The translations under genes and the position numbers were made by a program. Source: Gammaproteobacteria bacterium (GTDB lineage Bacteria; Pseudomonadota; Gammaproteobacteria; Eutrophobiales; Eutrophobiaceae). Taken from it: a stretch of DNA of 64,000 nt. Under the pieces are notes generated by a model. The model saw nothing but the letters and a program-made list of their open reading frames with translations. It was not told where the DNA came from and did not search any database. Position 1 is the stretch's first letter, and every line of letters starts with the position of its first letter. The DNA lies in contig OZ241347.1 in the NCBI GenBank assembly GCA_965200295.1, positions 3,006,093 to 3,070,092 of the forward strand. Direction: 5' to 3'. This document shows, in pieces, positions 15,024-39,276 of the stretch.

Positions 15024-15293
15024 TTAAACAACTGCGCCATCGCTGAGGTCCTGGTAAGAGAACCGTCCCATCACCGCCTTGGATAAGCCTGCGGCCAAAA
15101 ACCCGTTACCGAACTGTCCGCCCTGCAACTCAGCAAGGACACCCCCGGCCAGACCATGGGTCAGGACATGACCGGCGCCGCCCGCAGGTAACCCCGTGAG
15201 CGCTGTGAAATGCTCCCCTATCCCATAGAACGCCGCCGCACTGATACCCCCGAACAAAGCGCCCTTGACCGAGCCGGTGGCAAACCCGAGCAA
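15024..15293 (-). pseudogene. Displaced and decayed relic: RHS core end fused by deletions to a collapsed GH24 lysozyme tip, frameshifted
   Basis: Reads 'ATGSVKGALFGG...GRFSYQDLS' and then is out of frame. Continuing in the -1 frame gives 'AMAQLFNAENSVRNSPTK|TTSKGLTSRRYEEICM', which matches both ends of the lysozyme tip of 26982..37826 with the middle missing. Confidence 0.7.
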
Positions 15294-15297: not shown

Positions 15298-15903
15298 TCA
15301 TATTTCTACCTCAACATGCCGAATCCACTTACCATCGTAATAAAACAATATCACGGTAGATGACGGCGATGAGATCAAAATTGGAATGCTAAGTTTTCGT
15401 TTATCAATATCGGAAACATTAATTTTCGAACCATCTTTCATGTAACTGAACTGTATTGTTTCCAGATTTATACCGGTATAACCATAATAAAGATACATCC
15501 CTTTTAGTCCAATACCATCATCCAAGACATCCTTAACTACAAACGATTTTGCATGACTCCCTTTAACTGCAAATACCAAAAAATAGTCAAATCCATGCAC
15601 TAAATTTGAAACATGTTCAATATTGCTGTCTTTGTCGTAGAATTCATTTCTTTTTCTGGCTAGAAATAGAATGCTACTTTTGATATCACCGTAATCGACA
15701 AAGTCTAATACATATGGTGAGCCATCACTTCCATACGGATTAATATCTGGAAATCGGTCGCCGTGTACTGCTTCCAGTCCTTTAGTCGCTGCTAACTTGT
15801 CCATAAGTTGGAATACACTCTCCTTACTCTCAGATGAAGCCCAAGACAGCAGGGCCATTGAAAAACCAATAAGCAGAAGTAAACGAGAGACAATTCTGGC
15901 CAT
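15298..15903 (-). CDS. Putative periplasmic immunity protein for the M15-like peptidase tip (signal peptide, low GC)
   Basis: 201 aa beginning 'MARIVSRLLLLIGFSMALLSWASSE'. Lies immediately downstream of RHS 15906..18554. Confidence 0.6.
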   Translation of the reverse strand: MARIVSRLLLLIGFSMALLSWASSESKESVFQLMDKLAATKGLEAVHGDRFPDINPYGSDGSPYVLDFVDYGDIKSSILFLARKRNEFYDKDSNIEHVSNLVHGFDYFLVFAVKGSHAKSFVVKDVLDDGIGLKGMYLYYGYTGINLETIQFSYMKDGSKINVSDIDKRKLSIPILISSPSSTVILFYYDGKWIRHVEVEI

Positions 15904-15905: not shown

Positions 15906-18554
15906 TTAATTCTGTTTGCGAAGTTGAAAATGATAATGTCTATCATTGTAGTGATATGGCATCGCATTGGGATCAAAAATTAAATCTGTTTTACTAACAG
16001 AAGGCCGGACTATATCTACAGGCACAATCTCGCCGTCGTAGTATTTTATTCTCAAATCTACGGCATCACCTCTGATGTGAGCTGCTCCAGATTTACCTAT
16101 CAAAGAGCCATCTGTGCTTGAGTAGACTCTCCCGTCGGTCCCCTTATATCGGTCTCCACCTGTAACCCTGAATTGAAATTGGTCTGTTTCAATTTTCTTG
16201 ACTAGATTACTGTACAGATCTGCTACGTTTTCTCGAAGGGAATCATTTTCTAACACATAACCATCAGGATTTAATTCTCTGCCATCGACCATAATAGGGT
16301 ATCTATTCACTCGCGCCCGTGCCGCCGACGTTTCCGCATTAAACAACTGCGCCATCGCCGCGGTCAACGCCCCGTTAGCAAACTTGCCGCCGGTGATACG
16401 GGAGATGGTGCCACCCACCACAGCCGCTATGGTGGTACGACCAATAACCGCCGGGGCGCTGACGTCTCGATAGGCGAACCGCCCCATCACCGCCTTGGAC
16501 AAACCCGCCGCTAAGAACCCGTTGCCGAACTGCCCGCCCTGCAACTCGGCCAGAACACCCCCGGCTAAGCCATGGGTCAACACATGACCGGCGCCGCCCG
16601 CAGGTAACCCCGTGAGCGCCGTGAAATGCTCCCCTATCCCATAGAACGCCGCCGCACTGATACCCCCGAACAAAGCGCCCTTGACCGAGCCGGTGGCAAT
16701 GCCACCGGTGACAAACCCGAACTGAAAGGCACTCAGCCAGGACTGGAAGACCCAAGCCTGTACGCCTGGTATCGCCAGCAAGGCAATGCTTAAAAACGGC
16801 GCAAAGTCCCCGAACACCTTGTTCAAGCCCTTAAACAGCTTCCCGATAAAATACCCACTCGGGTCGGCATAGGTCAAGGGATTGTTCAGCACATAGCTGT
16901 AGCGGTTCTGACCCTGGGTATAGTGGGGGAACTGAATAACCGAGTCGGCCTGTAAGAACCGGCCGAGCTTCGGATCATAGATGCGCCCGTTCATGTGGAT
17001 TAAACCGTGAGCATCGAGCATCTCATGGCCGGTGTAGCCGCGTGCGGTGAAGCGGGTGTGCAGCGGACTGGTCAGGGTGAGCTGGGCCAGTATCTCACTG
17101 TTGTCCGGGTCGATGCGCTGGCCCCAGACGTCATAGCGCAGGCGCTGTAAGACAACGCCATCGGAGTCCACCACACCGACCACGCTGTCGAGGTGGTCTT
17201 TGAGATAATAGCGGGTGTCATTGGTCGTGCGGGCGCCGCTCTTGTCGTGTTGCTGGGTGATGAGTACTGTCCCCCCGGCCAGCGTGCGCCGGTAGGCGCT
17301 GGCGCCGTCGGCGGCGATGACATGCTCTACGGCGCCGAGATAGACCGTGGTCGTGGTACTCGTGCCCTGACCGGTGCGCACCGTGTCCGTGCGGGTGCTG
17401 CGGCTGCGGTCGGGGCCGTAAACAAAGGTGGTGGCGTGTGTGCCCCGGGTGATGCCAGCCACCTTGTTAAAAGCCGTGTAGGTCAGCGTGCGCCTGGCGC
17501 CGCTGAGTTGGTTGCCGTTGGCATCGTAGGTGTAGGTATCCGTGCCGGCCTGTACTACGGCATGTGGGCCGGGGGTGCTCGCGTCCGTGCTGCCGTAGGT
17601 GTACACGCCCACCCCGCTCTTGCGGGTGATGTTGCCCTGAGCGTCGTAGTCCACAGTGCGGGTGATGCTGGTCCGGCCACCGGCAGTCCAGGCCCGCACC
17701 AGACGATTGTGGCGGTCGTAGCTGAGATACTCGCCGAACCGGATAGCGCCCGCCTGCCAGGCGCGCTGACTTAAGTTGCCGAGCACATCCCAGCCGTAGC
17801 TGTCCTTCTGCAAGCGCACACGCATGGCCGTGTGGGCAGTAATCAGACCCACGCGCCCGGTGCTGTCCGAAATGCTGCGCACCGTACTGACCGCACCGCC
17901 GCCTAAGGTCTCCCGGGTAACCTGCCCGCGCGCGTTGCGATGGTTGATGGTGCGATACACGGCGCGTGGGCGGTTGTGCTCCTGCACCCCGTCGGTCCAG
18001 CGATACGCATGGCCCCACTGATTATACTGCACCGCCACCACGTTATCCGTCCAGTCGGCCCGCTGCCGGGCCGCATCGAAGGTCTGATACGGACGCCCGT
18101 ATTCATCGAAGGTCTGGCGGCTGTGGTAGGTCTTCGCCGTAGCGCCGACGCGCACGGTGGTCTCGGTCATGGCAGGACGCCCCAGCCTGTCATAGCGGTG
18201 CGCGCGAACATAGCCGCTACGGGTGTCTGCGACCCGGCTGAGTTGCCCCAGACCATTAGCCGCCGTGTCATACGTCCAGGTCACCTCGGACTCAATATCC
18301 GGCTTGGTATCCGCATCAGCGCCATCCGGCACTGTGTCCCGGCGCGTCAGCGGGCGACCCAGGGCATCATAAGTCAGCGCTTGGACATTGCCCACCGCAT
18401 CGGTCTGTTTGACCAGTTCGTCAAAGCCGTTATACGTGTAGTGGGTTACGCCCCGGTTCGGAAAATGGGCTATTTGATAAAGATTGTCTCTAATGAAATG
18501 TACGATAATACCAACGCCCCTCAAAGCATAAAAAATAAATCCAGCCTCCGCCAC
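15906..18554 (-). CDS. N-truncated RHS repeat protein (orphan) with a zinc D-Ala-D-Ala-type peptidase (M15-like) C-terminal toxin domain
   Basis: 882 aa. Identity with the main RHS begins at 'PNRGVTHYTYNGFD'. The tip after 'AQLFNAE' contains 'KSGAAHIRGDAVDL' (S-x-H-x-x-G-x-A-x-D) and 'DRHYHFQL', the metal ligands typical of peptidase M15 (VanY/VanX family). Confidence 0.7.
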   Translation of the reverse strand: MAEAGFIFYALRGVGIIVHFIRDNLYQIAHFPNRGVTHYTYNGFDELVKQTDAVGNVQALTYDALGRPLTRRDTVPDGADADTKPDIESEVTWTYDTAANGLGQLSRVADTRSGYVRAHRYDRLGRPAMTETTVRVGATAKTYHSRQTFDEYGRPYQTFDAARQRADWTDNVVAVQYNQWGHAYRWTDGVQEHNRPRAVYRTINHRNARGQVTRETLGGGAVSTVRSISDSTGRVGLITAHTAMRVRLQKDSYGWDVLGNLSQRAWQAGAIRFGEYLSYDRHNRLVRAWTAGGRTSITRTVDYDAQGNITRKSGVGVYTYGSTDASTPGPHAVVQAGTDTYTYDANGNQLSGARRTLTYTAFNKVAGITRGTHATTFVYGPDRSRSTRTDTVRTGQGTSTTTTVYLGAVEHVIAADGASAYRRTLAGGTVLITQQHDKSGARTTNDTRYYLKDHLDSVVGVVDSDGVVLQRLRYDVWGQRIDPDNSEILAQLTLTSPLHTRFTARGYTGHEMLDAHGLIHMNGRIYDPKLGRFLQADSVIQFPHYTQGQNRYSYVLNNPLTYADPSGYFIGKLFKGLNKVFGDFAPFLSIALLAIPGVQAWVFQSWLSAFQFGFVTGGIATGSVKGALFGGISAAAFYGIGEHFTALTGLPAGGAGHVLTHGLAGGVLAELQGGQFGNGFLAAGLSKAVMGRFAYRDVSAPAVIGRTTIAAVVGGTISRITGGKFANGALTAAMAQLFNAETSAARARVNRYPIMVDGRELNPDGYVLENDSLRENVADLYSNLVKKIETDQFQFRVTGGDRYKGTDGRVYSSTDGSLIGKSGAAHIRGDAVDLRIKYYDGEIVPVDIVRPSVSKTDLIFDPNAMPYHYNDRHYHFQLRKQN

Positions 18555-19077
18555 GTTCAGTGCTAATCAACCTGGCCTCGTCCGTAAAGATGATTTCACC
18601 TGACGATGTTCCATCGATAACAGGATAGAATGTAGGAGATATCGCTCCTTTTGTGACAGGTTTCTCGATAATGTTTAACCCCCCAGTTTTGTATTTTAAC
18701 GGTATCTGGCTCGGGCAAGTACTGTACTTTTCATATTTTGCAAAGGGGGCATTTTTGTTTTTCCCAGAAAAGATAAGAATCCTATAAGGATGATCATCTT
18801 CTGGGTTATTTGACTCACACGCCATTATCAATGTTTGTTCGCCTTCTGTGAAATCTTCGGTCACCAGATAGGGCGGCGTAAAAACAAACGGGCTGTCGTA
18901 ATAAAAATCCTTTATCGGTGAACAGCCCTGTGGGGCCATATACGTATGGTAGAAATGATGGGGAATATTGCTGTATTCCGGCAGCATGGGTGTCATCATA
19001 GAGTCGCTTGCTATAGCATACAAAAATGGCCATACAAGCAGTATTGCGATTTGTATCATCTGCTTCATCGTTTTCAT
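18490..19077 (-). CDS. Secreted hypothetical protein (signal peptide, low GC). Possibly an orphan or second immunity protein
   Basis: Probable start 'MKTMKQMIQIAILLVWPFLYAIASD'. Sits between two RHS cassettes. Confidence 0.4.
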   Translation of the reverse strand: MKTMKQMIQIAILLVWPFLYAIASDSMMTPMLPEYSNIPHHFYHTYMAPQGCSPIKDFYYDSPFVFTPPYLVTEDFTEGEQTLIMACESNNPEDDHPYRILIFSGKNKNAPFAKYEKYSTCPSQIPLKYKTGGLNIIEKPVTKGAISPTFYPVIDGTSSGEIIFTDEARLISTERGGGWIYFLCFEGRWYYRTFH

Positions 19078-19323
19078 TGGTCGATACAGCCTGGAGCATT
19101 GCAGGCAAGGTGTATATGACCTCTGCTTGATACACCAGAAGGATAGTTTTTGCTGTGCAAAACTTTGAAGTCGGTGTGCTTCTGTATGAAGGGGATAACT
19201 TCTTCTCTGGTCAAACCGGGATACGATCACTCAGAAGATGGCTTTCCTGTTCGCCAGTCTGGTACCCAGACTTGTGAAATCCTAAACCTCTTCACGATGA
19301 CCTCCCTGGTCCCCACATGCCGA

Positions 19324-19584
19324 TTATTTGACAATCGTCAATTGCCATTCATCATCCTTATTTTTCTGATACAGCCAGACTTCACTTTTTTCTAATCCCC
19401 TCTCTTTATAATCCACTTGAAAGTAAACATTATCAGAATCGCCTTCTAGAATGCCGATTGATACCAATGTTGCCCATGGATGGTCTTGCCTGAATTTGTC
19501 TTCAACTTCTCCAACGGTTACTATGTCACAGGCTGCTAGTATTAGAACCAAAAGTGAGAAACCAAAAATCCGTCTGGCAATCAT
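19324..19584 (-). CDS. Small lipoprotein, putative immunity for the tip of RHS 19581..23234
   Basis: 86 aa with 'FGFSLLVLILAACD' (lipobox LAAC). Start overlaps the RHS stop. Confidence 0.6.
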   Translation of the reverse strand: MIARRIFGFSLLVLILAACDIVTVGEVEDKFRQDHPWATLVSIGILEGDSDNVYFQVDYKERGLEKSEVWLYQKNKDDEWQLTIVK

Positions 19585-22500
19585 GGGCCATGTCCCTCTG
19601 TGTTAGCAGCTTTAATACCCTTCTCGTTCGCTATTAGATCATCTATAGAAAACGCCCAAGGGCGGCTCCCATCCAACCTAGAAGGCAAATCTCGGACATC
19701 ATACAAGATTAGTCCCTGCAACTCATTGACGATACCAGCGGTTCTTACCAACCCTCCTCCATATTTAAGTGTCAATTCATAGCTTACTGCCTTGTGCCTA
19801 ATTTCGGAATTATCATGCCCTGGAAAATTTTTGTGCCCCCTTGAACGCGTCTCATTAAAATCATCATATACATTTGTGTATTTATCATATTCATCTCCAA
19901 CCCAGATCCTTGCCCTTTTAATCCAGTTTTCTACTTTTTCAAAAATACTTCTATGATCTATCAGCTGTGAACCTTGCGCCCGTGCCGCCGACGTTTCCGC
20001 ATTAAACAACTGCGCCATCGCCGCGGTCAACGCCCCGTTAGCAAACTTGCCGCCGGTGATACGGGAGATGGTGCCACCCACCACAGCCGCTATGGTGGTA
20101 CGACCAATAACCGCCGGGGCGCTGACGTCTCGATAGGCGAACCGCCCCATCACCGCCTTGGACAAACCCGCCGCTAAGAACCCGTTGCCGAACTGCCCGC
20201 CCTGCAACTCGGCCAGAACACCCCCGGCCAAACCATGGGTCAGGACATGACCGGCGCCGCCCGCAGGCAGCCCCGTGAGCGCCGTGAAATGCTCCCCTAT
20301 CCCATAGAACGCCGCCGCACTGATACCCCCGAACAAAGCGCCCTTGACCGAGCCGGTGGCAATGCCACCGGTGACAAACCCGAACTGAAAAGCGCTCAGC
20401 CAGGACTGGAAGACCCAAGCCTGTACGCCTGGTATCGCCAGCAAGGCAATGCTTAAAAACGGCGCAAAGTCCCCGAACACCTTGTTCAAGCCCTTAAACA
20501 GCTTCCCGATAAAATACCCACTGGGATCGGTGTAGGTCAAGGGGTTGTTCAGCACATAGCTGTAGCGGTTCTGACCCTGGGTATAGTGGGGAAACTGGAT
20601 AATGGGATCTGCTTGTAAGAACCGACCGAGCTTCGGGTCATAAATGCGCCCGTTCATGTGGATTAAACCGTGAGCATCGAGCATCTCATGGCCGGTGTAG
20701 CCGCGTGCGGTGAAGCGGGTGTGCAACGGACTGGTCAGGGTGAGCTGGGCCAGTATCTCACTGTTGTCCGGGTCGATGCGCTGGCCCCAGGCGTCATAGC
20801 GCAGGCGCTGTAAGATAACGCCGTCGGAGTCCACCACACCGACCACGCTGTCGAGGTGGTCTTTGAGATAATAGCGGGTGTCGTTAGCCGTGCGCGTCCC
20901 GGCCTTGTTGTGTTGCTGGGTGATGAGTACTGTCCCCCCGGCCAGCGTGCGCCGGTAGGTGCTGGCGCCGTCGGCGGCGATGACATGCTCCACGGCGCCG
21001 AGATAGACCGTGGTCGTGGTACTCGTGCCCTGACCGGTGCGTACCGTGTCCGTGCGGGTGCTGCGGCTGCGGTCGGGGCCGTAAACAAAGGTGGTGGCGT
21101 GTGTGCCCCGGGTGATGCCAGCCACCTTGTTAAAAGCCGTGTAGGTCAGCGTGCGCCTGGCGCCGCTGAGTTGGTTGCCGTTAGCATCGTAGGTGTAGGT
21201 ATCCGTGCCGGCCTGTACTACGGCATGTGGGCCGGGGGTGCTCGCGTCCGTGCTGCCGTAGGTGTACACGCCCACCCCGCTCTTGCGGGTGATGTTGCCC
21301 TGAGCGTCGTAGTCCACAGTGCGGGTGATGCTGGTCCGGCCACCGGCAGTCCAGGCCCGCACCAGACGATTGTGGCGGTCGTAGCTGAGATACTCGCCGA
21401 ACCGGATAGCGCCCGCCTGCCAGGCGCGCTGACTTAAGTTGCCGAGCACATCCCAGCCGTAGCTGTCCTTCTGCAAGCGCACACGCATGGCCGTGTGGGC
21501 AGTAATCAGACCCACGCGCCCGGTGCTGTCCGAAATGCTGCGCACCGTACTGACCGCACCGCCGCCTAAGGTCTCCCGGGTAACCTGCCCGCGCGCGTTG
21601 CGATGGTTGATGGTGCGATACACGGCGCGTGGGCGGTTGTGCTCCTGCACCCCGTCGGTCCAGCGATACGCATGGCCCCACTGATTATACTGCACCGCCA
21701 CCACGTTATCCGTCCAGTCGGCCCGCTGCCGGGCCGCATCGAAGGTCTGATACGGACGCCCGTATTCATCGAAGGTCTGGCGGCTGTGGTAGGTCTTCGC
21801 CGTAGCGCCGACGCGCACGGTGGTCTCGGTCATGGCAGGACGCCCCAGCCTGTCATAGCGGTGCGCGCGAACATAGCCGCTACGGGTGTCTGCGACCCGG
21901 CTGAGTTGCCCCAGACCATTAGCCGCCGTGTCATACGTCCAGGTCACCTCGGACTCAATATCCGGCTTGGTATCCGCATCAGCGCCATCCGGCACTGTGT
22001 CCCGGCGCGTCAGCGGGCGACCCAGGGCATCATAAGTCAGCGCTTGGACATTGCCCACCGCATCGGTCTGTTTGACCAGTTCGTCAAAGCCGTTATACGT
22101 GTAGTGGGTCACACCCCGGTTTGGATCTGTTTCCTTGACACGTCGCCCGCGCAGGTCGTAGGCCCAGGCCACGGTCATGGCAGTATCGCCCGTGCCGGTG
22201 GCAGTCGCCACCACCTGCCCCCAGGCGTCGTAACGGTGCGTGACCGGCGTGCCCGCCGCATCGGTAGTCTTAATCACCTCGCCTAAGGCATTGCGGGTCT
22301 CGACGCTGGCCTGATTCTTGCCGTTGACGGTCTTAGCGCTCATGCCCTGATAAGTCATTGTGAGCCGGCTGTTGTGTCCGGCGCTGTAGTCAGGCAGGGT
22401 GGTCTGTGTCACCCGACCCAGCAGGTCGTAGGTGTGGACCGTGCGATACACCGTACCCCCGACATAGTACGGCTCGCTCTGCCGGGCCACCCGGCCCAAG

Positions 22501-23234
22501 GCATCATAGTCCGTGTCGGTATGTACCCACTGCCCGCCAAAGCCGCGCCGGGCCGTGCGCACTACCCGATCCAGCATGTCCCGATAGTCCCGGCTGCCCC
22601 CGCCGCCGGACAGCCGGGTCTCGGTGTACCAGGCCGCCTGACCGGGACAGTGAGACACCCCGGCACAGGCCGCCCGCAGCGCGCCGGTGTGAGAACCGTC
22701 AGCGGTGTGCGTAAAATACAACCGTCCCCCGGCCGTGTAGTGGTAGGTGGTCTTGAGACTGGCTGTCACCGCATAGCTGCCGTTAACATCCAACACCTGC
22801 TCGGATTGGGTCGGCAGTCCGTGGGCGTTATAGGCGCGGGTCCGGCGCAACGGGCGACCCAGGCAGTCTTTTTCCAGTGTCACAAACCGCCCAGCGCTGT
22901 CGTACTCTGTTGTGTCGATGTTGCAACGGGTGACGCCGGCGGCGGTGACCGCAGCCCGGATGCGGTGGCCGAACTTGTCATAGTCATAGGTGGCGGTGTG
23001 TTTGAGGTCGGTCTTATCCGGCTCCCGTACCTCAGTCTTGAGCAAGCCTTTGCGGTGACCGCTGGTGTAGTAGCTGAACTCGGCGGTGCGGCTTGCCGTG
23101 AACTCGGTGCCGACCATGGTGTTCCTGACGCCGCTCTCGATGCCGGCAACGGGTAGATCATTAGTTGGGCAGTTCAATCCTTGTCGGGTGGATATTAGCT
23201 TGAGTTGGCTCAATCCCTTACATGCCCCAAGCAT
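19581..23234 (-). CDS. N-truncated RHS repeat protein (orphan) with an uncharacterized C-terminal toxin domain
   Basis: 1217 aa. Identity with the main RHS begins at 'TASRTAEFSYYTSGHRKG'. It has a unique 45-aa N-terminus and a unique tip '...SRGHKNFPGHDNSEIRHKAVSYELTLKYGGG...'. Confidence 0.8.
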   Translation of the reverse strand: MLGACKGLSQLKLISTRQGLNCPTNDLPVAGIESGVRNTMVGTEFTASRTAEFSYYTSGHRKGLLKTEVREPDKTDLKHTATYDYDKFGHRIRAAVTAAGVTRCNIDTTEYDSAGRFVTLEKDCLGRPLRRTRAYNAHGLPTQSEQVLDVNGSYAVTASLKTTYHYTAGGRLYFTHTADGSHTGALRAACAGVSHCPGQAAWYTETRLSGGGGSRDYRDMLDRVVRTARRGFGGQWVHTDTDYDALGRVARQSEPYYVGGTVYRTVHTYDLLGRVTQTTLPDYSAGHNSRLTMTYQGMSAKTVNGKNQASVETRNALGEVIKTTDAAGTPVTHRYDAWGQVVATATGTGDTAMTVAWAYDLRGRRVKETDPNRGVTHYTYNGFDELVKQTDAVGNVQALTYDALGRPLTRRDTVPDGADADTKPDIESEVTWTYDTAANGLGQLSRVADTRSGYVRAHRYDRLGRPAMTETTVRVGATAKTYHSRQTFDEYGRPYQTFDAARQRADWTDNVVAVQYNQWGHAYRWTDGVQEHNRPRAVYRTINHRNARGQVTRETLGGGAVSTVRSISDSTGRVGLITAHTAMRVRLQKDSYGWDVLGNLSQRAWQAGAIRFGEYLSYDRHNRLVRAWTAGGRTSITRTVDYDAQGNITRKSGVGVYTYGSTDASTPGPHAVVQAGTDTYTYDANGNQLSGARRTLTYTAFNKVAGITRGTHATTFVYGPDRSRSTRTDTVRTGQGTSTTTTVYLGAVEHVIAADGASTYRRTLAGGTVLITQQHNKAGTRTANDTRYYLKDHLDSVVGVVDSDGVILQRLRYDAWGQRIDPDNSEILAQLTLTSPLHTRFTARGYTGHEMLDAHGLIHMNGRIYDPKLGRFLQADPIIQFPHYTQGQNRYSYVLNNPLTYTDPSGYFIGKLFKGLNKVFGDFAPFLSIALLAIPGVQAWVFQSWLSAFQFGFVTGGIATGSVKGALFGGISAAAFYGIGEHFTALTGLPAGGAGHVLTHGLAGGVLAELQGGQFGNGFLAAGLSKAVMGRFAYRDVSAPAVIGRTTIAAVVGGTISRITGGKFANGALTAAMAQLFNAETSAARAQGSQLIDHRSIFEKVENWIKRARIWVGDEYDKYTNVYDDFNETRSRGHKNFPGHDNSEIRHKAVSYELTLKYGGGLVRTAGIVNELQGLILYDVRDLPSRLDGSRPWAFSIDDLIANEKGIKAANTEGHGP

Positions 23235-23361
23235 TTTTTTCTATACTCACTGACCCGCTATAATAAGGGAGACGCTAAATATGATTGGATAAAAATGACG
23301 ACCCCAAATCGCTTTAGATAACGTACCCCGCATAATGATGTTCTTCCCAAGCAGATCAGCT

Positions 23362-23700
23362 TCACCTTCCATTCAAAAAGACTATCTGAACTTTATCTAC
23401 ATCAGCTACGATTGTCTCATTTAGTTCAGATAATGTCTCACGGGTCCCAACAACAATAGGCAAATTTAATCTAAAAACATAAATAATAAGATATTCATCA
23501 ATGTCCGGTGTTTCACCGTAATTTGGCGATCCAAACCTATGCTCCAGTTCTATTATGCCTGCAAGTTCAACTATTTCGGGCTCATAAGGATAGCTTCCTG
23601 CCGAAACCACACAGCCACTCTGAATTACAATCACAAATATCAATGTCAATGTCTTAATAGCGCGCTTACTCATTGATATATCACCGTTCCTACACGCCAA
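23362..23700 (-). CDS. Lipoprotein (probable start 23673, 'MSKRAIKTLTLIFVIVIQSGC'). Putative immunity for the IS-disrupted tip of 25075..26403
   Basis: Lipobox 'QSGC' and low GC. Overlaps the end of relic ORF 23670..23897 that lies between it and the IS. Confidence 0.5.
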   Translation of the reverse strand: MACRNGDISMSKRAIKTLTLIFVIVIQSGCVVSAGSYPYEPEIVELAGIIELEHRFGSPNYGETPDIDEYLIIYVFRLNLPIVVGTRETLSELNETIVADVDKVQIVFLNGR

Positions 23701-23897
23701 CCCTCCACTCGTTCTATGGCACCCGTAAGATCGTTAAGTTGTTGTGTATTAAGAGCATCCATTCTTGTACCACCACTTAATCCCGTAAATTTCCGAATTA
23801 GTGTTTGGTAGTTTGTAGTATCATTTTCGGATGGAGGAGCATATGTATGAGTTATGCTCATTTCTGGTGTATGAGCTGAGTTAGTGAGGTGGCGCAC
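23670..23897 (-). pseudogene. Probable 3' remainder of the toxin tip separated from its 5' part by the IS256-family insertion
   Basis: ORF abuts the IS left end and overlaps the start of the downstream lipoprotein gene (toxin-immunity coupling). Confidence 0.35.
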
Positions 23898-23905
23898 CCG
23901 GTGTT

Positions 23906-25250
23906 GTAAAATGGTGTTTTTTTGAAGAGCAACCTACAACATAAGAGAGGTACACCACCATGCAGAACGATACTGTAGTTTCCTTAAAAAAGCCAGCAGA
24001 GGAATCAGATCCTTTGAGCAGTTTGTTACGCGACGGTGCCCGGGCGTTGTTGCACGGGGCATTAGAGGCGGAGTTGGCGACGTATTTGTCCAGGCATGCC
24101 GGTGACTGCGATGCATCGGGGCGTCGGCACTTGGTACGCAACGGGTATTTACCTGCGCGCACGGTGCTGACCGGCTTAGGTGAGGTGCCGATACGGGTGC
24201 CCAAGACGCGCGACCGGGGCGGTCAGGGTCGGCATTTTACGTCCCGGTTGTTACCGCCGTACATCAAGCGCACGACGAGCGTGGAGAGTGTGCTGCCGTG
24301 GTTGTATTTGAAGGGGGTGTCAACGGGGGACATGCGTGCGGCGTTAGCGGCGTTGCTGGGCGAGCAGGCGCAGGGGTTATCGGCGGCAACGGTGAGTCGG
24401 TTAAAGCGGGTGTGGGAGGACGAGTACCGGGTCTGGCGGGGGCGGCAGTTTACGGGTCGGCGTTACGTGTACGTGTGGGTAGACGGGATTTACTTCAATG
24501 TGCGCGGCGATGAGGCCCGGCAGTGTCTGCTGGTGATGATAGGGGTGGATGAGTGGGGCCACAAGACCTTGTTGGCGGTCGAGGACGGCTACCGGGAGTC
24601 CAAGCAGAGTTGGCGTGAACTGTTAGTGGACTTGCAAGCCCGGGGCTTTGCGCCGCCGGCGCTGGCTATCGGGGACGGGGCGCTGGGGTTCTGGGCGGCG
24701 CTGGCCGAAGTATATCCCACCACCCGCACACAGCGCTGTTGGGTGCACAAGATAGCGAATATCTTAAACAAGCTGCCCCAGGGTTTGCAGAACAAGGCCA
24801 AGGAAGGCTTACACGCCATCTGGATGGCCGAGAGCCGGGCGGCGGCGCTGGCGGCCTTGAACCGATTTATTCGCACCTATCAGGATAAGTACCCGAAGGC
24901 GACCGCCTGCCTGGACGAAGACCGGGAGGCCTTACTGGCCTTTTATGACTTCCCGGCCGCGCACTGGCAGTCCATCCGCACCACCAATCCCATTGAATCC
25001 ACGTTTGCCACCGTGCGCCTGCGTACCGCCAGGACACGAGGCTGTGTCAGCCGCACCAGCCTGCTGACCATGGTCTATAAGCTCGGATTATGCGCCGAGC
25101 AGAACTGGCGCCGGCTGCGGGGGTTCAAGCACCTGGCCGACGTGATTGAGAATGTGAAGTTTATTGACGGAGTAAAACAACAGACTATTGAACAACACCA
25201 ACGGGCCGCCTGACTATGAGGCCATACACCAGATTTGACAATAACTCCAT
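23906..25250 (+). mobile_element. IS256-family insertion sequence (boundaries approximate)
   Basis: Single 417-aa transposase plus imperfect terminal inverted repeats: left 'ggtgttgtaaaatggtgt', right (reverse complement) 'ggagttattgtcaaatctggtgtatgg'. No clean target-site duplication found. Interrupts RHS cassette 25075..26403. Confidence 0.6.
23960..25213 (+). CDS. IS256-family (Mutator-type) transposase
   Basis: 417 aa containing 'YVYVWVDGIYFNVRG', 'CWVHKIANILNKLP' and 'NPIESTFATVRLR', characteristic of IS256 transposases. Confidence 0.85.
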   Translation: MQNDTVVSLKKPAEESDPLSSLLRDGARALLHGALEAELATYLSRHAGDCDASGRRHLVRNGYLPARTVLTGLGEVPIRVPKTRDRGGQGRHFTSRLLPPYIKRTTSVESVLPWLYLKGVSTGDMRAALAALLGEQAQGLSAATVSRLKRVWEDEYRVWRGRQFTGRRYVYVWVDGIYFNVRGDEARQCLLVMIGVDEWGHKTLLAVEDGYRESKQSWRELLVDLQARGFAPPALAIGDGALGFWAALAEVYPTTRTQRCWVHKIANILNKLPQGLQNKAKEGLHAIWMAESRAAALAALNRFIRTYQDKYPKATACLDEDREALLAFYDFPAAHWQSIRTTNPIESTFATVRLRTARTRGCVSRTSLLTMVYKLGLCAEQNWRRLRGFKHLADVIENVKFIDGVKQQTIEQHQRAA

Positions 25251-26403
25251 ATGTATTGATTGCTTCATTAATGCTTAAACCTTGGTACTTATCCGTTCTA
25301 AGTAAATCAACGAGGGCCCGACGGCCTATGCTCTCACTGGGAAACACTGCGAAACCGCCCGCTTCGCCAAGAGAGCCTCTGCGTTCAGCAAAATCAGTGC
25401 TCGTAATATTACCAGGGTTATTATTGCGCCATGCTCTGGTGCCTCCAGAACGTACCTCTATCGAGCCGTCACTATATTCAATGATTACATCATTGCCATC
25501 CGCTCTTGCTGATACCGGAGCTCTGATACGTGCGTTATTAGCTGCTGCTTTCTCCGCATTAAACAACTGCGCCATCGCCGCCGTTAGCGCCCCATTAGCA
25601 AACTTGCCGCCGGTTATCCTTGAGACAGTGCCGCCCACCACAGCCGCTATGGTGGTGCGACCAATAACCGCCGGGGCGCTGAGGTCTCGGTAGGAGAACC
25701 GTCCCATCACTGCCTTGGACAAACCTGCCGCTAAGAACCCGTTGCCGAACTGCCCGCCCTGTAACTCGGCCAGAACACCCCCGGCCAAACCATGGGTCAG
25801 GACATGACCGGCGCCGCCCGCAGGCAGCCCCGTGAGCGCTGTGAAATGCTCCCCTATCCCATAGAACGCCGCCGCACTGATACCCCCGAACAAAGCGCCC
25901 TTGACCGAGCCGGTGGCAATGCCGCCGGTGACAAACCCGAACTGAAAGGCACTCAGCCAGGACTGGAAGACCCAAGCCTGTACGCCTGGTATCGCCAGCA
26001 AGGCAATGCTCAGGAACGGCGCAACATCCCCGAACACCTTGTTTAAGCCCTTAAACAGCTTCCCGATAAAATACCCACTGGGATCGGTGTAGGTCAAGGG
26101 GTTATTGAGCACATAGCTGTAGCGGTTCTGTCCCTGGGTATAGTGGGGAAACTGAATAATCGGGTCGGCCTGTAAGAACCGACCGAGCTTCGGGTCATAA
26201 ATGCGCCCGTTCATGTGGATTAAGCCGTGAGCATCGAGCATCTCATGGCCGGTGTAGCCGCGGGGGGTGAAGCGGGTGTGCAGCGGACTGGTCAGGGTGA
26301 GCTGGGCCAGTATCTCACTGTTGTCCGGGTTGATGCGCTGGCCCCAGGCGTCATAGCGCAGGCGCTGTAAGATAACGCCATCGGAGTCCACCACACCGAC
26401 CAC
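25075..26403 (-). CDS. Orphan RHS C-terminal cassette with an uncharacterized tip, 3' end disrupted by the IS
   Basis: Begins 'VGVVDSDGVILQRLRYDAWGQRINP...'. The unique tip runs '...NARIRAPVSARADGNDVIIEYSDGSIEVRSGGTRAWRNNNPGN...EAINTY' and then reads into IS sequence from about 25250. Conserved junction upstream at 26404-26541. Confidence 0.7.
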   Translation of the reverse strand: MVGVVDSDGVILQRLRYDAWGQRINPDNSEILAQLTLTSPLHTRFTPRGYTGHEMLDAHGLIHMNGRIYDPKLGRFLQADPIIQFPHYTQGQNRYSYVLNNPLTYTDPSGYFIGKLFKGLNKVFGDVAPFLSIALLAIPGVQAWVFQSWLSAFQFGFVTGGIATGSVKGALFGGISAAAFYGIGEHFTALTGLPAGGAGHVLTHGLAGGVLAELQGGQFGNGFLAAGLSKAVMGRFSYRDLSAPAVIGRTTIAAVVGGTVSRITGGKFANGALTAAMAQLFNAEKAAANNARIRAPVSARADGNDVIIEYSDGSIEVRSGGTRAWRNNNPGNITSTDFAERRGSLGEAGGFAVFPSESIGRRALVDLLRTDKYQGLSINEAINTYGVIVKSGVWPHSQAARWCCSIVCCFTPSINFTFSITSARCLNPRSRRQFCSAHNPSL

Positions 26404-26541
26404 GCTGTCGAGGTGGTCTTTGAGATAATAGCGGGTGTCGTTGGCCGTGCGCGTCCCGGCCTTGTTGTGCTGCTGCGCCGTGCCCAGTGAGAAGGCGTGA
26501 TCAAGGGGTTAGAAATGATCATCAGGCTTTTCAGGGATGAC

Positions 26542-27006
26542 TTACCCTGATGGATGACATTCAGTTACAGGGGGGGCATCAGTATTAATTGTCGTAATCC
26601 AATACGTTGTAATATCTCCGTCTGAAATTACTCCTGTAATCCACACATGACCATGCCCAACCATCAAGCCCCGCCAAGTAAAAAATAGAGCTTCAATTTC
26701 TTGTTTCAAAATAGCTTCTTTAACATTCGAATTGAAAATAACTTCGTAGTTTTTAATAAAATCAGCTTCAGTCTCGAGTCGCAACAGCTCTCCATTTTCC
26801 AATGAAATCGATAATGGATATGCGATAAGCTCTGAAATTCGTTTCTTATTATCTACCTTTGTGGCAGCTTTTAAGGCATTTACAAATGCTACCTGTTCCG
26901 ACGCAACTTCATAGGCGGATTCAAATTCACAAGCATTAGAATTAATAGCGCCAATAACCAATATTACTAATAATATTTTCACTAACAGCCCCCTTGAAAC
27001 ATGCAC
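26542..27006 (-). CDS. Periplasmic immunity protein for the GH24 lysozyme tip (signal peptide). GTG start overlaps the toxin 3' end by 25 nt
   Basis: 154 aa beginning 'VHVSRGLLVKILLVILVIGAINSNACE...'. Low GC. Immediately downstream of the lysozyme-tipped RHS. Confidence 0.7.
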   Translation of the reverse strand: MHVSRGLLVKILLVILVIGAINSNACEFESAYEVASEQVAFVNALKAATKVDNKKRISELIAYPLSISLENGELLRLETEADFIKNYEVIFNSNVKEAILKQEIEALFFTWRGLMVGHGHVWITGVISDGDITTYWITTINTDAPPVTECHPSG

Positions 27007-30000
27007 ATCTCTTTATAGCGTCGACTGGTCAAGCCTTTTGATGTAGTCTTTGCTCCGTCGACGGTAATTTTATCCCATCTCAAAAACTGACTTGCAGCGC
27101 CGGCATAATGCCCGGAATTGAGTTGTCTCAATAGTGTCGAGCTTCGAAAATTTCCCGCACCAATGTTAAGTGTCAGAGATACCAACGCATCAAACTGGTT
27201 CTGTGTCAAAGAAGCTGTGACACCATTTCTAACTGCTGCTTGGGCAACACCAATGTCCTGGCGCAATAATTTTATTGCTTGCTCTCTGGTTATACCGTTC
27301 GCGTAAACTCCGCTCTTTATTTCTGCAGATGTCAATTTATGACCATATCCAATAGTTGGATGTTTTGCTTGATCTGGATATACGATTGCACTAAATCCCT
27401 CTCGTTCCATAATATGTGCAAGTCCACTCTCACTGATCTTTGTTGGAGAATTCCTTATCGACGTTTCCGCATTAAACAACTGCGCCATCGCCGCCGTTAG
27501 CGCCCCGTTAGCAAACTTGCCGCCGGTGATACGGGAGATGGTGCCACCCACCACAGCCGCTATGGTGGTACGACCAATAACCGCCGGGGCGCTGACGTCT
27601 CGATAGGCGAACCGCCCCATCACCGCCTTGGACAAACCCGCCGCTAAGAACCCGTTGCCGAACTGCCCGCCCTGCAACTCGGCCAGAACACCCCCGGCTA
27701 AGCCATGGGTCAACACATGACCGGCGCCGCCCGCAGGTAACCCCGTGAGCGCCGTGAAATGCTCCCCTATCCCATAGAACGCCGCCGCACTGATACCCCC
27801 GAACAAAGCGCCCTTGACCGAGCCGGTGGCAATGCCACCGGTGACAAACCCGAACTGAAAGGCACTCAGCCAGGACTGGAAGACCCAAGCCTGTACGCCT
27901 GGTATCGCCAGCAAGGCAATGCTTAAAAACGGCGCAAAGTCCCCGAACACCTTGTTCAAGCCCTTAAACAGCTTCCCGATAAAATACCCACTCGGGTCGG
28001 CATAGGTCAAGGGATTGTTCAGCACATAGCTGTAGCGGTTCTGACCCTGGGTATAGTGGGGGAACTGAATAACCGAGTCGGCCTGTAAGAACCGGCCGAG
28101 CTTCGGGTCATAAATGCGCCCGTTCATGTGGATTAAACCGTGAGCATCGAGCATCTCATGGCCGGTGTAGCCGCGTGCGGTGAAGCGGGTGTGCAGCGGA
28201 CTGGTCAGGGTGAGCTGGGCCAGTATCTCACTGTTGTCCGGGTCGATGCGCTGGCCCCAGACGTCATAGCGCAGGCGCTGTAAGACAACGCCATCGGAGT
28301 CCACCACACCGACCACGCTGTCGAGGTGGTCTTTGAGATAATAGCGGGTGTCATTGGTCGTGCGGGCGCCGCTCTTGTCGTGTTGCTGGGTGATGAGTAC
28401 TGTCCCCCCGGCCAGCGTGCGCCGGTAGGCGCTGGCGCCGTCGGCGGCGATGACATGCTCTACGGCGCCGAGATAGACCGTGGTCGTGGTACTCGTGCCC
28501 TGACCGGTGCGCACCGTGTCCGTGCGGGTGCTGCGGCTGCGGTCGGGGCCGTAAACAAAGGTGGTGGCGTGTGTGCCCCGGGTGATGCCAGCCACCTTGT
28601 TAAAAGCCGTGTAGGTCAGCGTGCGCCTGGCGCCGCTGAGTTGGTTGCCGTTGGCATCGTAGGTGTAGGTATCCGTGCCGGCCTGTACTACGGCATGTGG
28701 GCCGGGGGTGCTCGCGTCCGTGCTGCCGTAGGTGTACACGCCCACCCCGCTCTTGCGGGTGATGTTGCCCTGAGCGTCGTAGTCCACAGTGCGGGTGATG
28801 CTGGTCCGGCCACCGGCAGTCCAGGCCCGCACCAGACGATTGTGGCGGTCGTAGCTGAGATACTCGCCGAACCGGATAGCGCCCGCCTGCCAGGCGCGCT
28901 GACTTAAGTTGCCGAGCACATCCCAGCCGTAGCTGTCCTTCTGCAAGCGCACACGCATGGCCGTGTGGGCAGTAATCAGACCCACGCGCCCGGTGCTGTC
29001 CGAAATGCTGCGCACCGTACTGACCGCACCGCCGCCTAAGGTCTCCCGGGTAACCTGCCCGCGCGCGTTGCGATGGTTGATGGTGCGATACACGGCGCGT
29101 GGGCGATTGTTCTCCTGCACCCCGTCGGTCCAGCGATACGCATGACCCCACTGGTTGTACTGCACCGCCACCACGTTATCCGTCCAGTCGGCCTGCTGGC
29201 GGGCCGCATCGAAGGTCTGATACGGACGCCCGTAGGCATCAAAAGTCTGGCGGCTGTGGTAGGTCTTCGCCGTAGCGCCGACGCGCACGGTGGTCTCGGT
29301 CATGGCAGGACGCCCCAGCCTGTCATAGCGGTGCGCGCGAACATAGCCGCTACGGGTGTCTGCGACCCGGCTGAGTTGCCCCAGACCATTAGCCGCCGTG
29401 TCATACGTCCAGGTCACCTCGGACTCAATATCCGGCTTGGTATCCGCATCAGCGCCATCCGGCACTGTGTCCCGGCGCGTCAGCGGGCGACCCAGGGCAT
29501 CATAAGTCAGCGCTTGGACATTGCCCACCGCATCGGTCTGTTTGACCAGTTCGTCAAAGCCGTTATACGTGTAGTGGGTCACACCCCGGTTTGGATCTGT
29601 TTCCTTGACACGTCGCCCGCGCAGGTCGTAGGCCCAGGCCACGGTCATGGCAGTATCGCCCGTGCCGGTGGCAGTCGCCACCACCTGCCCCCAGGCGTCG
29701 TAACGGTGCGTGACCGGCGTGCCCGCCGCATCGGTAGTCTTAATCACCTCGCCTAAGGCATTGCGGGTCTCGACGCTGGCCTGATTCTTGCCGTTGACGG
29801 TCTTAGCGCTCATGCCCTGATAAGTCATTGTGAGCCGGCTGTTGTGTCCGGCGCTGTAGTCAGGCAGGGTGGTCTGTGTCACCCGACCCAGCAGGTCGTA
29901 GGTGTGGACCGTGCGATACACCGTACCCCCGACATAGTACGGCTCGCTCTGCCGGGCCACCCGGCCCAAGGCATCATAGTCCGTGTCGGTATGTACCCAC

Positions 30001-33000
30001 TGCCCGCCAAAGCCGCGCCGGGCCGTGCGCACTACCCGATCCAGCATGTCCCGATAGTCCCGGCTGCCCCCGCCGCCGGACAGCCGGGTCTCGGTGTACC
30101 AGGCCGCCTGACCGGGACAGTGAGACACCCCGGCACAGGCCGCCCGCAGCGCGCCGGTGTGAGAACCGTCAGCGGTGTGCGTAAAATACAACCGTCCCCC
30201 GGCCGTGTAGTGGTAGGTGGTCTTGAGACTGGCTGTCACCGCATAGCTGCCGTTAACATCCAACACCTGCTCGGATTGGGTCGGCAGTCCGTGGGCGTTA
30301 TAGGCGCGGGTCCGGCGCAACGGGCGACCCAGGCAGTCTTTTTCCAGTGTCACAAACCGCCCAGCGCTGTCGTACTCTGTTGTGTCGGTGTTGCAACGGG
30401 TGACGCCGGCGGCGGTGACCGCAGCCCGGATGCGGTGGCCGAACTTGTCATAGTCATAGGTGGCGGTGTGTTTGAGGTCGGTCTTATCCGGCTCCCGTAC
30501 CTCAGTCTTGAGCAAGCCTTTGCGGTGACCGCTGGTGTAGTAGCTGAACTCGGCGGTGCGGCTTGCCGTGATCTTGCTGTCGTAGCTGTCGCTGTTGGCC
30601 GTCTCGTTGCGCTTGCGCGTCACCACACTCTTCGTGAGCCGCCCCAACTCTTTCGACTCGGTATCCGTTGCCGCGCCGTACGTGTTGGCGGTCATTTGCC
30701 AGAAGCGTTTAGCATTGGCGTGGTCTTCGGTGGTCGTTGTTATTTCGGTGGGGTTGCCATAGCTGTCCACCACAGTGTCGGTGGTGACCGTGATGAGATC
30801 ATCGCCGGCTTCGGTGGTGGTGACGTTGTTCTTGGTGCTGGTCACGGGCAGGTCATAGGTCGTCTCTACCGCCTGCGCCAGGTACGGTTGCAGGGCGCCT
30901 AAGTCAGTGGTGGGTTGGGCGACATTCCAGCCGGACTGATACCCCTTGAGTCGCCAGGTATTGGCCGCCGTCCGCAGCAGGTGCCCGTCCTCGGTCTTCA
31001 CCTCGGTCTTCAGGGGATAACCGGTGTAGGGGAAGTCCTGGCGATACGTAGTGGTGGTCGCTACCTCCGTTTGCAAGTCCATGGTCGTTAAGGTCTTAAA
31101 GCCCAGCAGCCCCCGACCGCCGGCCTGTATTTTTGCCTGCTCGTACAGGTAACAGACGCTGCTCAAAGCGGCTGCGTTGGCGCTCGTGGGGGCGCTGGAG
31201 TCGACCCGCGTGAGTACGTACAGCGGCGCCATCAACTCCAGCACTGGTGCATTGCCGGCGAGGGCAGACAGGGAGTCGGTCAGTGTGCTGTCCGCCCAGG
31301 GGGTGTTCAGCGCAGTGTAAAAGTCAGACGCATTCAGGCTGGCGGTCTGTGCCTCCCAGCAGAAGTTGGCGCCGCCCCAGGTGAAGCAGCGCTGCCGCTG
31401 TGTGCGGGTGGTGTGCAACCCGTCGATGCGGGCATAAGCGTCGGTGCGGCTCAGGGATTCATAGGTGAGCACGGTCTTGGCGCCCAGGCCGTTGGTGATG
31501 GCGGTAATGAGGTGCGGGCGGGTGGTGGTGTTATGGTGGTAGGTGGCGAGGCTCTCCGTACTGGTACCGGACTCCGGCAGATGCAGCAGGTCGGCGTTGC
31601 CGTCGCCGTTCACATCTGCAGTGAAGTACTGCTCGGCATCCTTGCCGCGGGTGGTGCGCACGCTGACCGCGGCGGCATAAGCGCCGGTTTTGGGTGAGAA
31701 ACGCTGTACGCGCAGAGCCTTGCCCTTCACGTCGTGGTAGAGCGCATCCGGGTAACCATCGCCGTTGTCGTCGTACAAGGACAGCGCCGAGGACGCCTGG
31801 GCGCCGGTCGCGACGTTCGTCAGTTGGGTCGCGTCGGTAAAGCCGGCGCCGGTACTCAGGCGGTAATGCCAGTTGCCGGTCCACTGGTAGTTGTTCCTGG
31901 CCTTCTCGTACCACTTGCCGACAAAGTAGAGGAGATCAGAGAGCCCGTCGCCGTTCAGGTCTGTACTACGGAGCCCTTTCGGACTGAGACCGGTGGCTGC
32001 CAGCGGGAAGCCGGCCGCGGCGCCATAGGGCTTGAACTCGATGCTATTCTCCTCGTCTGTTTGTCGAAACACATGCAGGCGGCGCAGTGCGTGCGTGGAC
32101 TGACCACTGGAGCTTCTTTGCAGATCAAACTGTATGGCGCTGTCATAGCCCCAGGTGATCAGGTCTGCGCGCCCATCCCCGTCCATATCCGCCAGCGCCA
32201 CATCTGCCACCCGTAGCGAGCGCCAGCGTAGCAGCTCCAGGCCGGTCGCGGTCGCAGCCTGGGGCGTAAACTCGATGGGCAGTCGCGTCTCCCCGGTGTA
32301 GGCATAATACCGGCTGGAGTCAGGTTTGGCGGCAGTGTTGCGTTTGAGATAGCGTACTGCCAGCGTGTAACCGGCGGGGCCATAGCGCACCGGCTGCCCC
32401 TGTTGCGGCGCCGGATGCGAAAGCTCAACTAAGCGATAGGCGTCCAGCAACCCGTCCGAGTTCAGGTCGGCATAGCGGTAACGGTCGCCGAACAGCCGGT
32501 CAGACACCGCAGTGCCGGCGCTGAGGCGCCAGCCGCCCGTGGCTTGTGTCCCGGTGGTGGTCTGCGGCACCGCCAGATGCAGCCGGGTCTCCTTATTTTT
32601 GGCGCTGTACACCAGCAGGTCGTGGCGCCCGTCGCCGTTGTAATCCACCACCTCGGTGTGCACGCGCAGGTTCTCGCCGTAATTGGATGTGCCGTAACCA
32701 TCGTCGTATTCCAGAGAGGTGCCCCCGCCTACGAAGACGCCAGATACCAACCGGCCAGTGGTTTTGTCGGCCAGGGCATAACGCAGCCGGTGTTTATCGC
32801 TGCTGGCTTCGGTCCAGACCAGATCGGTGAGCCCGTCGCCGTTGATGTCTGCGGGGTTGAAGTCCACCGGCGACCACTCACTCTCCGTGTTCAGGGTCAG
32901 CGTGGCCGCGGCTGCTTGTTTGAACAGCGGGGTCGGGTCAGACCAGGCAAACGTGGTTTCCGGCTGGCACACCGTCGTCCCTGAACCCACACACGCCTTG

Positions 33001-39271: not shown

Positions 39272-39276
39272 TATAA

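Follow-up and report, generated by a model that had tools for sequence, protein, structure and literature searches.

Effectors that hydrolyse murein in the periplasm and are paired with immunity proteins carrying signal peptides are standard in type VI secretion (the T6SS), and the T6SS pairs Tge/Tgi, Tae/Tai and VgrG3/TsiV3 were taken here as the comparison set. The domains of the WHIX class of T6SS effectors include lambda-lysozyme-like and Peptidase-M15-like ones (PMC12135965). In the 2012 catalogue of polymorphic toxins, the wall-targeting tips were glucosaminidase, NlpC/P60 and L,D-peptidase domains (Zhang et al., PMC3482391), and a text search of that catalogue returned neither GH24 nor M15. 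In the literature searched, no RHS-GH24 fusion was found, and neither a T4-type lysozyme nor an M15-like peptidase was described at the end of an RHS protein. The present analysis concerns an RHS locus in a 64,000-nucleotide (nt) stretch of DNA, hereafter the window, from a Gammaproteobacteria bacterium (assembly GCA_965200295.1, contig OZ241347.1, positions 3,006,093 to 3,070,092). We consider it likely, with a probability of roughly 0.8, that the locus encodes a polymorphic RHS toxin with exchangeable C-terminal tips, predicted to be periplasm-acting peptidoglycan hydrolases with exported immunity proteins. A first-pass annotation of the window had proposed that two of the RHS tips are aimed at peptidoglycan and that each has an exported partner, and this proposal was supported computationally.

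The locus shares with the RHS/WapA loci (PMC3482391) the RHS repeats and core, the AT-rich variable tip, the downstream immunity gene and the array of 5′-truncated cassettes, and it differs from them in that every cassette here appears to be periplasm-acting. All relevant parts lie on the minus strand, on which every feature below is located unless stated otherwise: the main RHS gene at 26982..37826, encoding 3614 amino acids (aa), is followed by shorter open reading frames (ORFs) that repeat the end of its product. The ORFs 26982..37826, 26542..27006, 15906..18554 and 15298..15903 listed in the first-pass annotation were all present on this strand, as were the literal strings NQFDALVSLTLNIGAGNFRSSTLLRQLNSGHYAGAASQFLRW, SGAAHIRGDAVD and DRHYHFQ that it had quoted. 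Comparison of the downstream region with the main gene by blastn identified seven homologous segments with 90–99% identity. In five of the seven, which are the tip-bearing orphan cassettes, the homology ended at main-gene positions 27459–27466, directly after the motif NAETS; the remaining two, at 7680..8576 and 15024..15293, are tipless remnants that aligned to the core or the pretoxin only. The former of these remnants closes the array and is a mere piece of RHS core, which is 95% identical to main-gene 28231..29105 and ends prematurely without a pretoxin, tip or immunity gene.

One orphan cassette (15906..18462) is 5′-truncated and, by blastn and translation, consists of the last ~712 aa of the core and pretoxin followed by a tip different from that of the main gene. 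Its portion 16326..18462 is 99.1% identical to main-gene 27459..29595, and the identity ended at 27459 of the main gene and 16326 of the orphan, right after NAETS; therefore, the two tips are 26982..27458 and 15906..16325, in agreement with the boundaries drawn in the first pass. Guanine-cytosine content changes between these parts, from 64% in the core to 37–43% in the tips and immunity genes (43% in the GH24 tip, 41% in the M15-like tip and 37% in each immunity gene), and such a drop below the core value is typical of RHS tips that have been imported. The locus therefore displays a variable tip past a conserved boundary, an adjoining immunity gene and orphan cassettes, which are the features that define RHS polymorphic toxins. 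Because the spare cassettes are 94–99% identical to the main gene in their core and pretoxin DNA, tip exchange by homologous recombination is feasible.

The domain that ends at the recombination boundary is a Gly-rich hydrophobic pretoxin domain of ~175 aa (27459..27983, FIGKLF...AQLFNAETS), which is common to all tip-bearing cassettes and whose 3′ end forms the boundary. It is weakly DUF637/PT637-like, the Pfam DUF637 match (E = 3.5e-5) falling under the gathering score. DUF637 is the pretoxin domain of CdiA-type toxins, and the locus resembles CdiA-CT/CdiI in that a DUF637-like pretoxin ends in a swap motif (NAETS here, VENN there) and orphan CT/immunity modules lie downstream. Unlike in CdiA, an RHS shell takes the place of the filamentous haemagglutinin repeat stalk as the carrier, CdiB was not found, and each tip consists of one domain with no module for entry into the cytoplasm, as suits an end point in the periplasm.

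The tip of the main gene (26982..27458, 158 aa and the stop codon) was recognised as a GH24 (T4/phage-type) lysozyme. Pfam PF00959 (Phage_lysozyme) matched it at E = 2.1e-37 with 128.6 bits against a cutoff of 22.3, covering profile positions 3–125 of 125, and among PDB sequences it matched endolysins of GH24 (E = 2e-25) as well as T4 lysozyme (E~1e-4). In the alignment, tip residue 20 corresponds to residue 11 of T4 lysozyme, so that E20, D29 and T35 reproduce the E11/D20/T26 triad at equal spacing; the codons of these predicted catalytic residues were checked and lie at 27399..27401 (Glu), 27372..27374 (Asp) and 27354..27356 (Thr). A Glu/Asp/Thr triad of the T4 type implies a hydrolytic muramidase, and the tip is accordingly predicted to be one. 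The Pfam match, the PDB matches and the triad spacing agree, and the GH24 assignment made in the first pass is borne out by them; the motif given there, EG...Y.D..G..TIGYGH, is the family consensus rather than a literal string, the actual sequence being EGFSAIVYPDQAKHPTIGYGH. Its catalytic fold and residues are those of the GH24 phage endolysins (8APP, 6ET6). In five related contigs, lysozyme tips that are 72–80% identical to it were found on the same pretoxin scaffold, all five of which keep a C-terminal CxFQGGC; in an oxidising compartment, this motif may give rise to a disulfide.

Downstream of the lysozyme tip lies a putative immunity gene of 146 aa (26542..26982), which was delimited by independent gene calls, homologues and a signal-like N-terminus, MKILLVILVIGAINSNA/C (the slash marks the predicted cleavage site here and below). 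The 25-nt overlap with the toxin gene described in the first pass exists only for the longest ORF, which begins at GTG 27006. The likely start is GTG 26982, which overlaps the toxin stop by 1 nt within TAGTG: gene calls made independently for four metagenome contigs of identical sequence place the start of the 146-aa protein (P0156) there, homologues have ATG or GTG exactly at this position, overlapping the stop as ATGA or TAGTG, and a GGGGG Shine-Dalgarno-like run is located 6 nt upstream. An overlap of 1 nt is thus the most likely one, as judged from these start sites. Homologues of the immunity protein formed only 5 clusters in 5.8 billion proteins, which makes this tip-immunity pair rare; each of the five directly follows a GH24 tip on the same scaffold (pair loci L014, L015, L016 and L018), and all five have similar hydrophobic N-termini ending in S-x-A. 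Both copies of the protein encoded in the window have one Cys at the N-terminus predicted for the mature form and a second Cys in a C-terminal TECHPSG, and four homologues have neither; the restriction of both Cys to the window copies suggests a lineage-specific disulfide, fitting a periplasmic location.

The second of these copies is an intact orphan gene (14484..14924) whose product shares 76% aa identity with the first, the ratio of nonsynonymous to synonymous substitution rates (dN/dS) between the two being 0.49. Upstream of it, DNA alignment and translation revealed a decayed toxin remnant (14925..15293), in which part of the pretoxin survives (15024..15293), followed by a deletion that shifts the frame. 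Of the lysozyme gene no more than the final ~90 nt are left, its domain having been deleted between CAAAGA microhomologies.

The tip of the orphan cassette (15906..16325, 139 aa and the stop codon) was assigned as an M15/LAS-like zinc peptidase by a family alignment, the Pfam matches of its relatives, an AlphaFold model and Foldseek comparison. The assignment rests on family-level evidence, because direct searches with the 139-aa tip gave nothing useful. The family was built stepwise: a word-indexed search yielded 10 relatives, and their alignment was used for a full HMMER scan of 1.84 billion proteins, which returned 198 clusters at E ≤ 1e-3, of which 103 reached E ≤ 1e-10. In the full-length relatives examined, the domain is C-terminal in long RHS-type proteins (SpvB/FG-GAP/RHS, DUF6531-RHS and DUF6443 architectures), several of them at least 2000 aa long, and it is therefore a genuine polymorphic-toxin tip. 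An alignment of 62 members showed G57, H83, D90 and H132 to be invariant and D58, R59, Y60, S69, Y126 and H130 to be near-invariant. The predicted zinc ligands are His83 (16077..16079), Asp90 (16056..16058) and His132 (15930..15932), and the predicted catalytic residue is His130 (15936..15938); read in this way, the pattern H-x6-D ... H-x-H is the LAS/M15 zinc peptidase signature, with GGDRY (~16146..16160) where SGYR is usual.

Supportively, Peptidase_M15_3 (PF08291) was matched by 19 of the 62 members, with a best E of 1.9e-8, and Peptidase_M15_2 (PF05951) by 5 of the 62. The relative P0143 connects the tip family (E = 4.9e-8 against its profile) with PF08291 (23.5 bits against a cutoff of 23.2); its best PDB sequence match, at only E = 0.028, was the M15A zinc DD-carboxypeptidase 1LBU, in which SRHLDGRAAD of P0143 aligned on SRHMYGHAAD and DHYHV on DHTHV. 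The AlphaFold model of the tip reached a mean predicted local distance difference test score (pLDDT) of 91.7 and a predicted template modelling score of 0.86, and the six top PDB fold matches in Foldseek, at weak scores, were all M15 proteins, namely LysB4, LysECD7, the T5 and RB49 L-Ala-D-Glu peptidases, ChiX and VanX; the BFVD fold matches of the same model include M15A, VanY and endolysin peptidase domains. These family and model data point to a remote M15/LAS relative that is nearest to M15A (Peptidase_M15_3, 1LBU) and belongs to a subfamily caught by no curated model. The M15 relation proposed in the first pass therefore stood, through family evidence, and the VanX/VanY label attached to it proved too specific, M15A being closer. 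As a candidate in its own right, the VanX/VanY subfamily was rejected, since the relatives match Peptidase_M15_3 and Peptidase_M15_2 instead. Among described proteins, the M15 endolysins LysB4 (6AKV) and T5 EndoT5 (2MXZ) and the Streptomyces albus enzyme 1LBU (M15A) are the top fold or motif matches of this second tip. Unlike endolysins, the two tips are toxin cargo and not lysis enzymes, the lysozyme tip carries the C-terminal CxFQGGC, and the peptidase tip lies beyond any sequence model.

A reading in which the 139-aa tip keeps the LAS/M15 scaffold and acts on another D-amino-acid or periplasmic substrate, or serves as a non-catalytic binding module, would account for the missing direct match to any curated M15 model and for the weak fold matches, and the LAS fold does occur in enzymes whose substrate is not murein. 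We regard it as quite improbable, given that 62 diverse members show no or almost no variation in the zinc triad and the HxH histidine, which argues for catalysis, and that every annotated sequence or fold relative is a cell-wall peptidase and the partner protein is exported.

The putative immunity gene of the M15-like tip (15298..15903, 201 aa) begins with an ATG 2 nt past the toxin stop, and its product has a signal-like N-terminus, MARIVSRLLLLIGFSMALLSWA/SS. Homologues of the partner with 47–72% identity followed tip homologues in L001/L007, L004, L005 and L006, of which L001/L007 lie by type IV secretion system genes, L004 carries another toxin scaffold, L005 is from Oceaniserpentilla and L006 is from a Cellvibrionales metagenome-assembled genome (MAG); in L008, a gammaproteobacterial MAG, a 40-codon tip remnant stands beside an intact immunity gene. 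In a related-locus search made with an 11-sequence alignment, marine Gammaproteobacteria were the closest named relatives for the pair, and all its known homologues are from Gram-negative, mostly gammaproteobacterial, genomes. Signal peptides were judged by a simple hydropathy check together with conservation in homologues. The partner homologues have signal-like N-termini, some with an L-A-C lipobox, and for both immunity genes the exported N-termini described in the first pass were recovered as signal-like sequences conserved in homologues. A lipoprotein status of the two window proteins was considered and rejected, since the cleavage sites are SNA/C and SWA/S, and the homologues likewise oppose it, since they have no Cys at position +1 or show a genuine LAC lipobox only where they belong to other species.

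Two further arrangements of these cassettes were observed elsewhere. On L004, an ENA metagenome contig, a cassette array on the other scaffold, with the conserved N-terminus MQITLERQSK..., bears both GH24 and M15-like tips (344..1896 and 5634..6947); the GH24 tip has a 245-aa partner with 26% identity to the window lysozyme immunity protein (E = 4e-5), and the M15-like tip has its own immunity homologue, so the two toxin types travel together elsewhere too. In L001, L002, L003 and L007, an orphan M15-like tip with its immunity gene is followed by another toxin-immunity pair and lies by TrbL, VirB8, CagX, TrbI and integrase genes, possibly on an integrative conjugative element.

The small downstream ORFs might conceivably not encode immunity proteins and instead encode unrelated secreted proteins or accessory factors travelling with the tips. 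The two proteins gave no Pfam match (E ≤ 10) and no meaningful NCBIfam match, including to the lysozyme-inhibitor (Ivy, MliC/PliC, PliG, PliI and LprI/DUF1311) and Tai/Tsi models; this lack of a match to known immunity or lysozyme-inhibitor families favours such an explanation, as do the low-confidence model of the lysozyme partner and the dN/dS value between its two copies, which indicates moderate constraint only. Each partner is, however, strictly adjacent to its own tip type across scaffolds and genomes, and the start/stop overlap and the survival of partners as orphans after toxin decay are standard hallmarks of cognate immunity, which leaves the accessory-factor explanation very improbable. 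The assignment of an own immunity gene to each tip, already made in the first pass, is supported by this adjacency, which is conserved in unrelated contigs.

Signal peptides or lipoboxes are not confined to the two pairs. Every other candidate immunity ORF (8719..9081, 12667..13041, 19324..19584, 18490..19230 and 23362..23700) also carries a signal peptide or lipobox, and across the array such a sequence was present in each of six candidate immunity ORFs; therefore, the whole array looks periplasm-acting. No entry domain accompanies the single-domain tips and, taken together with the exported immunity ORFs, this indicates that the system seems to stop at the periplasm.

The carrier of the lysozyme tip was resolved by Pfam domains and by TIGR03696 (Rhs_assc_core, 63.5 bits against a cutoff of 32.5 in NCBIfam) into a Sec signal, fn3/Ig-like repeats, SpvB, an FG-GAP propeller, TcdB_toxin_midN, RHS repeats (PF05593, E = 2e-13), the RHS-associated core, the pretoxin domain and the GH24 tip, in this order. 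Its N-terminus (37695..37826) was observed to be Sec-type signal-like, ...SLLLSLCLFTGASLPAAA/QTP, and the fn3/Ig-like modules, three of them called as fn3 by Pfam, are repeated over ~1300 aa between the signal and SpvB. The end of the RHS core (27984..28109), seen in the sequence and in the Rhs_assc_core match, reads DPKLGRF...NNPLTYADPSGY (DPSGY), and this DPxG motif pair would correspond to the site where RHS/TcC proteins release their C-terminal cargo, cleavage here being predicted by analogy. The TcB/TcC domain set (SpvB, FG-GAP, TcdB_toxin_midN and RHS) is complete in Pfam, and the arrangement, with the cargo after DPxG, follows the same order as in the TcB-TcC cocoon of the Photorhabdus and Yersinia Tc toxins. 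Unlike in the Tc toxin, a single chain combines TcB and TcC and has the ~1300 aa of fn3/Ig-like modules in front, and the cargo is directed at bacterial cell walls rather than at eukaryotic targets; no TcA gene was present among the large ORFs scanned in the 64-kb window, and one could lie beyond it. As judged from its domains, the main protein is a Sec-signalled, TcB/TcC-like protein and not a T6SS effector. The alternative of a T6SS Rhs effector was rejected because Pfam identified no PAAR or VgrG in the main protein and the flanks, in which neither was detected, encode a type II secretion system (T2SS). With the T6SS peptidoglycan pairs the locus shares hydrolysis of murein glycan or peptide in the target periplasm and an adjoining signal-peptide immunity gene; it differs from them in that the main protein and flanks contain no PAAR, VgrG or WHIX, in its Sec-signalled TcB/TcC-like carrier inside a T2SS cluster, and in immunity proteins that belong to no described family.

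The T2SS gene set is complete, flanks the array on both sides and is encoded on the plus strand, opposite to the array. At 295..6643 it comprises GspH, pseudopilin-like N-methyl proteins, GspK, a PilN-domain (GspL-like) protein, GspM (subtype b) and GspE, and at 37976..41738 GspF and the secretin GspD. When L008 was checked for the same T2SS-RHS arrangement, only short fragments of a gspE 3′ end were found; these, at 6112..6230 and 9494..9571 of L008, are similar to the 3′ end of the window gspE and lie near the orphan immunity gene. The nearest precedent is Bcn-A, an RHS bacteriocin of Xanthomonas perforans that is inactive in a T2SS secretin mutant (PMC7259588). The position of the T2SS genes together with this precedent led us to propose export by Sec and then by the T2SS. 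Like Bcn-A, the main protein would be an antibacterial RHS protein acting outside the cell in dependence on the T2SS secretin, with an immunity ORF downstream (PMC7259588). Bcn-A has 1398 aa, its mechanism is not known, and its immunity protein is predicted to be located in the inner membrane (PMC7259588); unlike in Bcn-A, the secretion genes here physically bracket the array, and the tips are recognisable wall hydrolases.

The same export route bears on which bacteria are attacked. If the true targets were bacteria with an exposed wall (Gram-positive) or a damaged outer membrane, the immunity proteins would shield the producer's own wall during export and not its siblings, and there are points in favour of this: with a Sec signal and flanking T2SS genes the toxin must cross the producer periplasm, no device for entry through an outer membrane has been demonstrated, and the T2SS-secreted RHS bacteriocin occurs free in the supernatant (PMC7259588). 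Against it, enclosure in the RHS shell should keep the tip sequestered during export in any case, and the homologues of the M15-like pair all come from Gram-negative genomes. Moreover, intact orphan immunity genes adjoin decayed toxins both in the window (14484..14924) and in L008, which fits defence against incoming toxin in Gram-negative bacteria; the retention of immunity after toxin loss is expected if neighbours deliver these enzymes into the periplasm. By the same logic, the immunity gene in the M15-like cassette can also guard against neighbours deploying that tip. On balance, we consider targets of the Gram-positive or damaged type improbable and retain periplasm-acting hydrolases with exported immunity, aimed at Gram-negative competitors, as the preferred reading.

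Several observations nevertheless weigh against this reading. The M15-like tip itself gave no match in Pfam, including the Pfam M15 models even at E ≤ 10, in NCBIfam, or among PDB sequences searched with the single sequence or the 62-sequence profile, so that on its own it would fail the check for a match to M15 models set out in the first pass, the Peptidase_M15_3 matches being those of its relatives; its Foldseek scores were weak (E 0.017–0.16, TM 0.33–0.45), and the bond that it would cut cannot be named from these matches. The M15-like cassette begins at 18462, which corresponds to residue ~2744 of the main protein, and therefore has neither the N-terminal half nor a secretion signal, so that its tip is stored rather than deployed; it is probably not deployed at present and, as the cassette lacks its 5′ end, may never be expressed. 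For the partner of this tip, a public gene call (P0161, a 100%-identical protein) starts at Met34, without the signal; the sequence upstream of Met34 is conserved, and the 201-aa form is therefore favoured. The AlphaFold model of the lysozyme immunity protein, made with 6 sequences, had a pLDDT of only 56.7. The link of the array to the T2SS rests on gene position.

The features above are compatible with the following mechanism. The main protein, whose N-terminus is signal-like, would be exported by Sec, and its passage across the outer membrane would probably proceed via the flanking T2SS, as its position and the one precedent suggest. By what is known of the family, the TcB/TcC-like RHS shell would enclose the C-terminal cargo and cut it at the DPxG motifs. 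This cargo would comprise the DUF637-like pretoxin, the best candidate for crossing the outer membrane of a competitor, and the GH24 muramidase, which would cleave the glycan strands of the target wall. The small Sec-exported downstream protein, translationally coupled via TAGTG, would neutralise the lysozyme in the periplasm of the producer and its siblings. The 5′-truncated spare cassettes could swap the tip by homologous recombination, and the M15A-like tip, with its His-Asp-His zinc site and catalytic His, is predicted to cut peptide stems or cross-links and would have its own exported immunity protein. The most far-reaching form of this scheme, in which Gram-negative rivals would be injured independently of the T6SS by a T2SS-exported TcB/TcC RHS shell whose pretoxin ferries a periplasm-only cargo, with the M15A-like toxin family and the two immunity families being new, is put forward tentatively and must be regarded as somewhat doubtful.

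The remainder of the array and its surroundings contain further tips and mobile elements. DUF6973 tips (Pfam E = 6e-11) occur in two cassettes, at 9081..9509 and 13041..13466, and are 81% identical to each other; their partners are small lipoproteins with 45% mutual identity, and a third tip (19581..19988) is weakly related to the two DUF6973 tips, with 28% identity. The tip of the first orphan cassette (25075..26403) is broken by an IS256-family (Transposase_mut) element on the plus strand (23960..25213); the interrupted tip (...GTRAWRNNNPGNI...) gave no Pfam match, and a likely lipoprotein immunity ORF (23362..23700) is cut off on the far side of the insertion. A second transposase (43696..44805, plus strand; DDE_Tnp_1 with DDE_Tnp_1_assoc) is located just past the secretin gene and an AAA ATPase gene (41965..43257).

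Collectively, the combination of a wall-degrading toxin with periplasmic immunity is of a kind already known, and what is less ordinary here is the divergent peptidase family, the two immunity families and the TcB/TcC carrier embedded among T2SS genes. The zinc-peptidase toxin family comprises ~200 clusters and is seen by no curated model in its window member. The partner of the lysozyme tip, if it is an immunity protein, would represent a new class of protein inhibitor for GH24 (T4-type) lysozymes, and specific inhibitors of phage lysozymes, like new murein peptidases, are of practical interest in connection with enzyme antibacterials. The array provides a clean case in which every RHS cassette seemingly acts in the periplasm, and the T2SS-embedded locus would be a good test system for the delivery of a hydrolase past the outer membrane of a rival by an RHS protein that does not use the T6SS.

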